In this document: positions 3,001-6,000 of the stretch, one piece after another
How positions within the stretch are numbered: position 1 is the first letter of the stretch
Layout: each line of letters starts with the position of its first letter
Virus record (IMG/VR): IMGVR_UViG_2703718868_000013
Span: 1 to 7,867 of that record
Source of the DNA: a virus
Taxonomy: Duplodnaviria > Heunggongvirae > Uroviricota > Caudoviricetes
Strand: one strand, 5' to 3'
DNA: 7,867 bases
Made by a program: the position numbers

Positions 3001-6000
3001 CCATCCGCGATAACGCCTTCGTAATACTCACGTTGCTCGTTGAGTTTTGATTTTTCTGCTTCCAGCTCATTCAGTAGAGCCAGCACAACCTGCGGCGTGG
3101 CCTTCGCGCGAAACGCCGCCAATCTTCGAGCTGTTGCCACTGTTTGTATTGCGGCTGCCGCCTTACGCAGTGCCTGATAGTTGATCTCGCTCATTTTTCT
3201 CTTCACTCCGGTATACAAGGATTACTACGCCCCCTCTGCTAATTGCGCGAGCTGGATCCCCTGGTTCCATGCCGTCAATCCCGAAGGCTTCGAAAAATGC
3301 ATCCATTGCCTTCTGGCGTTGATCCTGCTTACGGCGTTTATTCCATTTTTTCATGAACAACAGTGACAGCCATCGTCCGCTGCAGAACATGATGTAGAAA
3401 TAACCAAGGAGCGCCAGACCGACATTAAGAGCCGTATCTATGGTTAGTTGTGAGTCAGTCGCCATCAGACTTTCTTACCTGTTTAAGTAACTGGTTGAAC
3501 ATAACGCTCAGGGGATTGCCGTATCCAAACGGCAGATTGTTTACGCGATACAGAATCATTTTGTTTTTTTCACCAGTTCGTACAATTAACCCATTCCACA
3601 GTAACCGTGATAATTCATTACTGATAGAAACTGCGCTTCTTCCAAGTGCGAGGGATATATCTTCTCTACTGCAATCTGGATTTTCCTGGATATATTCGAT
3701 AACGGTCATGTGGTCCACTTTAGTTAATGGCGGTTTCTGATTGCATGCTATTAGTATTCATTTCGTTAATAATTTCATCCAGAAGGAGTTCAAGCCCTTC
3801 TCGACCCATATCTGAAAGAATGAAACCTTTATCAGGGGAAGTAGTGAGCATTTTCTGATAAAGAAATAGTGCTCTACCCATTCCTTCTGCCTCGCCGTAT
3901 TTTTGAATTAAATTCCATTCAATATACTGTTGTAAGGCAAAACGAATGGGGCCGGGATATATCGTCATAACCCCATGCTTCCCGTTATATATTACGGCGC
4001 GATCTGTTGTTCCGTGTTCGTTTGGGATATCAATAGTGCCATTCTTGTTTTCTTCTTCGTTGATGAATGTCGTCACGTACAACCAGCGCCACTGGGCTAC
4101 CTTCATCTCAACAGGGAGTTTACCCAGTAATCCTGCATTGTCGGCTTGTGCGAGGCATTGAAGGATTTGCAAACCTTTCACATTAGGATGATCGAATTCA
4201 CCTGCATCCAGACGGCGGATTGCGTCGTGATAATCAATAGTCATACTGCCAGTTCGTATACCTGTGGCTGTTGCTTCAGCCTGGAATTCAGTGTATTGCA
4301 TGATATTTACTCCTCATCTTCATCTGCTGGTGCAATAACGTCATATCCTGCCTTTTCTGCAATAAACAGGAATGTTGAAAGACTTCCTACAAGTTCATCG
4401 TCATGAACATGACGAATTAATATTACTTTCCCGTTTTTGATGGTCAGCAATACTCTGGTTTGCTCGTGTTCTGCTGTTTTCTGATGCATTATTATCTCCC
4501 GTATGCTTTACGCAGAAACAAGCAGGCAATATGCATGTAATTTTTCCCGTGCTGTGCAATAAGGCAGGCTGTTTTGTGTGATGCCTTATGTTTTATAAAG
4601 GTCATATAAAACCTCCTGTGGATTAAGGGTGTGATAATCCCCGGCGATTAAGCCGTAATATATTATCCGGAGATGACTTGTTCTATTTAACTGGTTAGTT
4701 CTTTTTCAGCAGCTGCTTCAGCATAGCAACGTGCAAATTCAAGAACTTCATCACCTGTTCTTTTTATTGCATCGTTGTCTGACATTTGTAATACAACAAC
4801 TGCGCATAATAAATTATGGATATTGTTTGCAAAGGAATCCGGTGCCAGGCATAAGCCTTCATACTTATCATGGATATTGCCAGTCATTGTTGCTACTCCT
4901 TTGCTTCTGATTTTCCCGTTAACAACCACATCAAGTTACAATTAAGCGCACTGGCCAGTGGTACTATCTGAGCAGCTGGAACTTCATGGATGCCGCATTC
5001 CCAGTCGTTTATGGGGTCACTATAGGTATGAATCATGCGGGCAAGATCAGATTCGGTTAATCCCAGTTTTGTACGGGCGCTTTTGATGCGTGCGCCAATA
5101 CTTTCCACATGGACTTCAGGCACATTTACGCGAATAACTGACTCGCTGTTTTTTTCACTCAGCAGAGAAAGCGGATCGCATCCTAGGACGTTTGCCAGGG
5201 GGATAAGCATGCTGATGGTTGGCTCGTACTCTCCACTCTCCCATTGCAGAATAATCTCTTCGTCAAGATCGAGTAGTCTGGCTAGTTCGGTAGTCGTCAA
5301 GCCGCAGGCTTCACGTTTGGTGCGTATGCAGGCTATCTTGTTGCCTGAGCGAATAGAATGTTGTTGTTTTGTCGATGCGATCGCTAAAGCATATTCATGA
5401 GTAAATTCCAGCACATCAAACCCAACCTCTTTTAATCGCGTATCATCCAGGAGGTTGAAGGTGCGAACAGCACTGAGCAGGTTTGCGATGGTTAATGCAA
5501 AAGAATCGAGGTCTAAATCATCACATAAAACCTTGTTGTAAGTATTGAGGCTACATGTTTTTGGTGTTGTTTGTAAGGCTTCCATATCATCACCATGCAA
5601 TTCTAAGTTGAAGTTAATCAATATATAATTGATGGTGAGATATTATGTGTCAGGTAAACTAGTGTCAATCAAAAATTGATAAACTTGATTTTTTTGTAGT
5701 GGGTGACAAATAATTTAATTTAAAATCAACAACTAACCAAATCTGTTGATATTGAATGGTACAGATGAGATGACTTTTGACTGGATATACAGCAGCGCCA
5801 TTCCCTCTTTTTCGATGCTCCACGGCTGATAGTTGGGATTGTCTGATAAGACCATGATCTTGCTTCCAATTTTTTGAAGTCGTTTGACGTAACATTCGCC
5901 ATCAAAGCAAAATGCATAAATGCCATCACCGTCAAAATAAGTTACTGTTTTATCTAAAAACAGTAAGTCACCTGGGGCGATTGTTGGGGCCATGCTGTCC

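Follow-up and report, generated by a model that had tools for sequence, protein, structure and literature searches.

The PL operon of phage lambda encodes the small proteins cIII (54 amino acids, aa), an inhibitor of FtsH, and Kil (47 aa), an inhibitor of FtsZ, and the lambda N protein binds the boxB element in its own leader. Small open reading frames (smORFs) that inactivate the cI repressor without proteolysis were described as part of TF-smORF modules, in which the smORF, of ~55-60 aa or longer, is divergent from a dedicated transcription factor (TF); the phages in which they were reported are plasmid-like ones of Vibrio and Aeromonas (Silpe et al., Nature 2023; PMC10432266). Here we analyse a 37-codon open reading frame (ORF), hereafter the small ORF, in a 7,867-nucleotide (nt) stretch of a Caudoviricetes virus (positions 1 to 7,867 of IMG/VR record IMGVR_UViG_2703718868_000013), which we refer to as the window. 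It is very likely that the small ORF is a genuine gene of a leftward early operon, encoding a basic, predicted two-helix micro-protein that would act in trans, and that it travels with a leader and an RNA hairpin as a mobile module and is probably coupled to the gene that follows it. The phages that carry it are lambdoid prophages of Enterobacteriaceae of the phiP27, Shiga-toxin (Stx), Fels-1 and HK97 types, in which the small ORF lies downstream of a LexA-like cI gene.

Results

Coding potential and conservation of the small ORF

The small ORF (4492-4605, minus strand) starts at ATG 4605-4603, stops at TAA 4494-4492 and encodes the 37-aa peptide MTFIKHKASHKTACLIAQHGKNYMHIACLFLRKAYGR. On the minus strand the locus reads ...CACAGGAGGTTTTATATGACC...GGGAGATAATAATGCAT. 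As described in an earlier annotation of the window (the original prediction), the ATG is preceded by the Shine-Dalgarno sequence AGGAGG (4612-4617, minus strand) and a 6-nt spacer, TTTTAT. The hexamer occurs three times in the window versus 2.2 times expected and is not significant alone; the signal beyond chance is the conservation of the small ORF across loci, presented below. Relatives keep a purine-rich Shine-Dalgarno sequence (GGAGG, GAGG or AGGAG) at the same place. In 43 of 80 IMG/VR loci, which represent the commonest E. coli variant, the start codon behind the same AGGAGG is GTG, and this may add to the tendency of gene callers to miss the small ORF.

DNA and tblastn searches recovered ~120 homologous loci in several independent sets, each locus with an open frame of 32-38 codons. 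The frame is intact in 10 loci from E. coli and Stx phages (76-100% nucleotide identity), in 10 more distant phages (50-65% amino-acid identity) and in all 22 loci from 20 other enterobacterial species, of the genera Citrobacter, Enterobacter, Trabulsiella, Kosakonia, Raoultella, Pantoea, Atlantibacter and others. The phage relatives are phiP27, ASU11, PhiR49_2, Fels-1, Fostie, LMessi, ENT39118, AsXd-1, EKP1, SaltyDalty and Fraca, to which Klebsiella ST16-OXA48phi5.3 and phi467 can be added. Conservation at the amino-acid level, which the original prediction had proposed to probe by tblastn, could thus be followed down to ~50% identity with frames intact. At least 511 contigs in IMG/VR are related, and each of the 80 that were fetched carries an intact copy. 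The small ORF is present in ~4% of complete E. coli genomes and in many Stx-converting prophages.

Family members start with M(T/S)F(I/V/L)K(D/H/N) and end with L(F/Y)L(R/K)KAYG(R). Their lengths differ by whole codons (35, 37 or 38 aa), and the positions of start and stop are kept across ~50% amino-acid divergence. The copies of the window and of phiP27 differ by 16 synonymous and 10 non-synonymous changes, corresponding to a ratio of non-synonymous to synonymous rates (omega, or dN/dS) of 0.07. Family-wide, dN/dS ranges from 0.04 to 0.3, with the proportion of synonymous differences (pS) at 0.6-1.0, and hence saturated, and that of non-synonymous differences (pN) at 0.1-0.35. Variable sites are distributed over codon positions 3, 1 and 2 as 22:12:5, and stops interrupt each of the other five frames in essentially all copies. 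Frameshifts and stops in homologous loci, named beforehand as the pattern that would speak against a gene, were looked for and came to light in a single frameshifted contig. The suggestion that the small ORF encodes a real micro-protein is therefore strongly supported, by the ~120 intact loci, the purifying selection, the third-position bias and the mosaic breakpoints that coincide with the ends of the ORF (see below). Judged from these comparisons, we consider it highly likely that the small ORF is a coding gene.

Three records assigned to Bacteroidota also contain the small ORF, namely Elizabethkingia phage EKP1 (OM284015.1), a Chitinophaga metagenome-assembled genome and Chryseobacterium sp. 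18061. These copies show 51-64% identity and have the same synteny and hairpin, in what is a typical enterobacterial lambdoid early region; the records may reflect an error of host assignment or contamination.

Predicted fold of the peptide

Six residues of the peptide are invariant in the family, L15, G20, K33, A34, Y35 and G36, and no Cys or His is among them. The AlphaFold (AF2) model is a basic two-helix hairpin with helices at residues 7-18 and 21-35 and a mean predicted local distance difference test (pLDDT) score of 75.6. The net charge is about +4 to +7, and the window copy has two Arg and no arginine-rich motif. Neither the fold nor the profile of ribbon-helix-helix proteins (Arc/CopG) was found in the peptide, and a structural comparison of the peptide with known RNA-binding folds revealed no similarity.

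A covarying hairpin in the leader RNA

The leader of the small ORF contains an RNA hairpin, CGGC-UUAAUC-GCCG (4642-4655, minus strand), with a 4-base-pair stem and a 6-nt loop, located ~37 nt upstream of the ATG. In the alignment, the stretch from the hairpin to the Shine-Dalgarno sequence (4618-4641, minus strand), GGGAUUAUCACACCCUUAAUCCAC, is single-stranded and conserved in sequence (family consensus GGGGAUUCCUGCAACC..AAAUUUCA). Covariation was assessed on 15 diverged intergenic regions that had been aligned without regard to structure. The four stem pairs are 98.3% paired in this alignment, and all four show changes on both sides, giving the stem variants CGGC/GCCG, UGCC/GGCA, CGCC/GGCG, CACC/GGUG and CAGC/GCUG. 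The covariation score was reached by none of 500 shuffles, register-shifted controls were 22-58% paired, and RNAalifold independently predicts the same helix. The loop is conserved as UUAAYC, and the commonest E. coli stem variant, CGGU/GCCG, is a G·U intermediate. The validity of G·U pairs on the sense strand only and the conservation of the loop, not of the arms, argue for a structure of the mRNA and against a DNA palindrome; an antisense terminator was rejected on the same grounds, together with the shortness of the stem and the lack of a U-tract. To our reading, these early operons thus contain a cis element, the covarying hairpin, that has not been described before. Rfam searches at gathering and E-value thresholds returned no match.

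Two further candidate elements in the leader were discarded. A second helix that follows the hairpin, GGAUUA/UAAUCC, is present in the window and its close relatives and is not conserved family-wide, and the A/T-rich stretch that precedes the hairpin has no positionally conserved -10 or -35 element, so that a dedicated sigma-70 promoter was rejected there. As a separate observation, a GGA lies right after the hairpin (GGGGAUU, 4627-4641, minus strand) and a second one in the Shine-Dalgarno sequence (4612-4617) ~22 nt downstream. This layout resembles a two-site CsrA target in sequence, and the first GGA is found in most, not all, relatives.

Hairpin and small ORF are seldom apart. An exact search of IMG/VR with one hairpin variant gave 18 matches, 17 of which were followed by a member of the peptide family, and a looser regular expression located the hairpin in 126 of the ~140 loci collected (a set selected for pairing, which was excluded from the covariation evidence). 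When a gene intervenes between the two, in many cases one for a 130-aa protein that consists of an S24 peptidase domain only, the hairpin precedes the intervening gene. It therefore marks the start of the module and is not strictly part of the ribosome-binding site of the small ORF. It could stabilise the 5' end after processing, bind a protein or control translation.

This arrangement raises the possibility that the micro-protein binds RNA and recognises the hairpin in its own leader, thereby autoregulating translation or stability, or operating as a small switch like N/boxB. The basic character of the peptide, the covarying hairpin with its conserved loop a short distance upstream, the near-constant pairing of hairpin and ORF, and the precedent of lambda N and boxB are all in keeping with such a role. 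Against it, the hairpin stays at the head of an intervening gene, as a module-start or untranslated-region element would; the peptide has neither an arginine-rich motif nor any likeness to known RNA-binding folds; no boxA-like sequence CGCTCTTA was found beside the hairpin; and a regular-expression search of the phiP27 genome yielded no second hairpin copy. We consider this explanation unlikely. It is likewise doubtful that peptide and hairpin form a dedicated RNA-protein pair unrelated to N/boxB, that is, a miniature post-transcriptional switch. If they did, the pair could autoregulate or time the translation or stability of distal early-left genes, and it would be confined to lambdoid prophages of the phiP27/Fels-1/HK97 type.

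Boundaries and neighbourhood of the mobile module

In E. coli genomes, blocks of homology to the window break at ~4660 and ~4490, which are the edges of hairpin plus ORF. Some E. coli genomes share only 4660-4492 with the window and have different genes on both sides. The breaks identify the moving unit as ~170 base pairs (bp) of leader plus ORF.

All loci are situated 0.3-1.9 kb downstream of a LexA-like cI gene, in the same orientation. In its fuller form, the phage array consists of the hairpin, an optional gene encoding only a Peptidase_S24 domain (S24-only gene), the small ORF, PHROG 8959 (~70 aa), PHROG 1737 (~119 aa), PHROG 340 and a ParE-like toxin-domain protein (PF24732). In relatives L005, L007, L011 and L014-L042, the genes of this array that follow the small ORF lie 0.1-1.2 kb beyond it. 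The window has a reduced array of small ORF, PHROG 340 and PHROG 1515, from which the ParE-like gene is missing. Homologues of the 60-aa protein encoded next to the small ORF in the window occur within ~1 kb downstream of it in most other loci.

In many relatives a Peptidase_S24-only protein of 128-131 aa overlaps the start of the small ORF by ATGA (L012, 1612-2004; L013, 1618-2004; L016, L020 and L026-L034). It resembles the C-terminal domain of cI without the helix-turn-helix (HTH), and the hairpin is then upstream of the S24-only gene. The presence of this gene might point to a connection with the cleavage or oligomerisation of the repressor.

The junction with the next gene

The stop codon of the small ORF (TAA 4494-4492) ends 2 nt before the start codon (ATG 4489-4487) of the 60-aa gene. 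The two were originally described as overlapping, which does not hold for this stop codon; the string TAA-TAA-TG is correct, as a second in-frame TAA (4489-4491, minus strand) can be read from the sequence, the last base of which is the A of the downstream ATG. The 60-aa gene has a Shine-Dalgarno sequence of its own, GGGAG (4496-4500, minus strand), 6 nt before ATG 4489 and within the codons GGG AGA for Gly36 and Arg37 of the small ORF. The junction TAATAATG is present in 65 of 80 IMG/VR loci, and most relatives keep GGGAG or GGAG inside the ...AYG(R) codons. In all 40 loci with a callable downstream gene, the next start is placed between -4 and +4 nt from the small-ORF stop. Three unrelated families are represented in this next position: PHROG 8959-like (23 loci), PHROG 1737-like (10 loci) and PHROG 340 (8 loci; the type found in the window).

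The tight spacing and the location of the downstream Shine-Dalgarno sequence in the last codons make coupled translation likely, and translational coupling of the small ORF to the next gene, as originally proposed, is plausible from the sequence. However, equally close spacing is general for neighbouring genes of the leftward operon and not special to this junction.

A related explanation is that the small ORF is a cis-acting leader peptide or upstream open reading frame, of which only the act of translation matters; the peptide itself would be functionless, and ribosomes would be delivered to the 60-aa and 193-aa genes, or the start of these genes unmasked. Such a role would suit the small gap between stop and start in every locus, the GGGAG inside the last two sense codons and the strong Shine-Dalgarno sequence before the small ORF. 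It is at odds with the strong purifying selection on the amino acids while synonymous sites are saturated, and with the conservation of the peptide ahead of three unrelated downstream families. Since the peptide sequence is conserved whatever follows, a leader peptide that functions independently of its sequence is improbable. Furthermore, the genes of the operon are all closely spaced, the downstream gene has a good Shine-Dalgarno sequence, and no terminator or alternative-structure switch was detected at the window locus: no terminator-like site was found on the minus strand near the small ORF, and in the minimum-free-energy fold of window positions 4470-4690 (z = -2.0; window sequence only) the downstream Shine-Dalgarno sequence is largely open. 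We regard this explanation as very unlikely. The same observations, namely a peptide conserved before three unrelated families and the failure to find a terminator or antiterminator in the window, argue against the earlier idea of a leader peptide that controls the downstream operon in the sense of an attenuator.

Annotation status

The small ORF had been described as uncalled. This is true of RefSeq, where the NCBI Prokaryotic Genome Annotation Pipeline (PGAP) makes no call at a 99.6%-identical E. coli locus or in any RefSeq row inspected, and not of several GenBank phage records, which list a matching hypothetical protein (BCI49708.1, BCI49047.1, XSB43068.1 'FIG00644067', UKL15111.1 and XNS37654.1). 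Pfam, PHROGs, NCBIfam and PADLOC scans with the window peptide and 15 family members gave nothing above noise up to E = 10, a sequence profile search of the PDB returned only designed repeat proteins (E ~0.05), and a literature search with peptide strings found no papers. Five relatives of the peptide were recovered among 5.8 billion clusters (padded query) and seven among 1.84 billion representatives. Because protein databases barely contain the family, searches at the DNA level were needed.

The shortness of the ORF, its omission by PGAP, the lack of a known family and the conserved RNA element that adjoins it would all be expected of a chance ORF over a conserved non-coding RNA or DNA element. 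We find it highly improbable that the small ORF is no gene in this sense: the variation has codon-position periodicity, dN/dS is far below 1, insertions and deletions come only in multiples of three, start and stop are conserved across ~50% amino-acid divergence, and Rfam has no match.

The idea of a His/Cys metal-binding micro-protein, suggested by the four His (6, 10, 19 and 25) and two Cys (14 and 28) among the 37 residues of the window copy, to which a third Cys had been added that this copy does not have, fails because the His and Cys residues are not conserved (in relatives H6 is replaced by D/N, H10 by Y/F, H19 by Y/C/F/S/N, C14 by Q/R/L/K/V and C28 by S/N/R/E/Q/D, H25 is missing in the 35-aa subgroup, and none of the six invariant residues is a metal ligand), and we virtually dismiss it.

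Genomic context of the window

The window corresponds to the left arm, from integrase to cI/cro, of a phiP27/Stx-like lambdoid prophage, and over its whole length it is 88-99% identical to prophages of Shiga-toxin-producing E. coli and to Stx1- and Stx2-converting phages. Downstream of the small ORF, all on the minus strand, are the 60-aa gene that it tightly abuts (4307-4489; PHROG 340, function unknown), the 193-aa gene of the same operon (3720-4301; PHROG 1515, function unknown) and genes for MarR-like (3455-3718), DUF4752 (3163-3465), Ea22-like (2133-3218) and AlpA/Xis-like (1395-1649) proteins and the integrase (75-1361). The 60-aa protein weakly resembles anti-repressor PHROGs in their C-terminal parts.

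Upstream, and also on the minus strand, an 80-aa ORF of the same operon (4687-4929; PHROG 4587) is separated from the small ORF by an 81-nt spacer that contains the hairpin. It is followed by genes for a 242-aa double-HTH protein (4893-5621) and the LexA-like cI (5733-6452), beyond which the cro-like (6555-6812) and Rha (6858-7601) genes are on the plus strand. Called mechanically from GTG 4929, the 80-aa ORF begins within the end of the 242-aa gene, and its true start is ambiguous; in PGAP and GenBank annotations it starts from a later ATG, which gives 66 aa (201 nt).

The best sigma-70-like site of the leftward operon, TTGACA-17-TAATAT (5640-5668, minus strand; a pattern match only, with 10 of 12 consensus positions), is located within the 111 nt that separate cI from the 242-aa double-HTH gene. 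Presumably this site is the counterpart of PL, from which the small ORF would be transcribed.

Discussion

We propose that the small ORF is transcribed together with the early-left operon, from a PL-like promoter after induction. Initiation at AGGAGG would be efficient, and translation would terminate 2 nt before the next ATG, with reinitiation feeding the next gene. The two-helix peptide would then act in trans by binding a partner, which may be an RNA or, as for cIII and Kil, a protein; the orphan antirepressor smORFs of the TF-smORF modules offer another model. Trans action is most likely because it is the amino-acid sequence (MTFIKD...L15...G20...LRKAYG) that is conserved. In Shiga-toxin phages the early operon governs induction and the takeover of the host, so that the gene may plausibly contribute to the choice between lysis and lysogeny or to manipulation of the host.

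Several considerations weigh against this proposal. One copy of the small ORF, on Logan contig P0001, is frameshifted (64 aa); its residues 1-28 match the family and are followed by an alternative frame, and it may be an artefact of sequencing or assembly, or else a mutant that is rare. Conservation of the nucleotide sequence at the C-terminal end could partly serve the downstream Shine-Dalgarno sequence and not the peptide. Protein databases hold just 5-7 relatives, and gene callers mostly skip the small ORF. Finally, the case for coding is built on comparing sequences, and the trans-acting role and its target we purely infer.

A widespread micro-protein gene has thus been missed systematically, with no call in RefSeq and no entry in Pfam, PHROGs or NCBIfam, and this annotation gap concerns Stx-type prophages.

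Comparison with known systems

Small early proteins of phages form a well-known class, to which the small ORF adds an uncharacterised member that is for the most part unannotated. Like cIII and Kil, it is part of a leftward early operon, with the repressor on one side and xis/int on the other, and it encodes a very small, probably helical protein that has no enzymatic domain and presumably binds a partner. Its peptide has no apparent sequence similarity to cIII or Kil and no apparent motif in common with them.

With the smORFs of the TF-smORF modules it has in common that it encodes an orphan small phage protein, without homologues or domains, near an immunity region with a cI-type repressor. 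In contrast to those modules, the small ORF is co-oriented with its neighbours inside the leftward operon and has no adjacent divergent transcription factor. Its link to cI consists of synteny only, plus, in some phages, the ATGA-coupling to the S24-only gene, the product of which is like the C-terminal part of cI.

The leader has parallels with lambda N and nutL, in that a small basic early-left gene is preceded, in its leader, by a short hairpin whose loop is conserved and whose stem covaries. The peptide differs from N in lacking an arginine-rich motif, in being about one third of its size and in not being encoded by the first gene after PL, and the locus differs from the nut system in that phiP27 has no second, nutR-like copy under the regular expression used. 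As for the junction, the 2-nt gap between stop and start and the downstream Shine-Dalgarno sequence within the upstream coding sequence are like those of coupled phage gene pairs, and nothing sets this pair apart from its neighbours in the operon.

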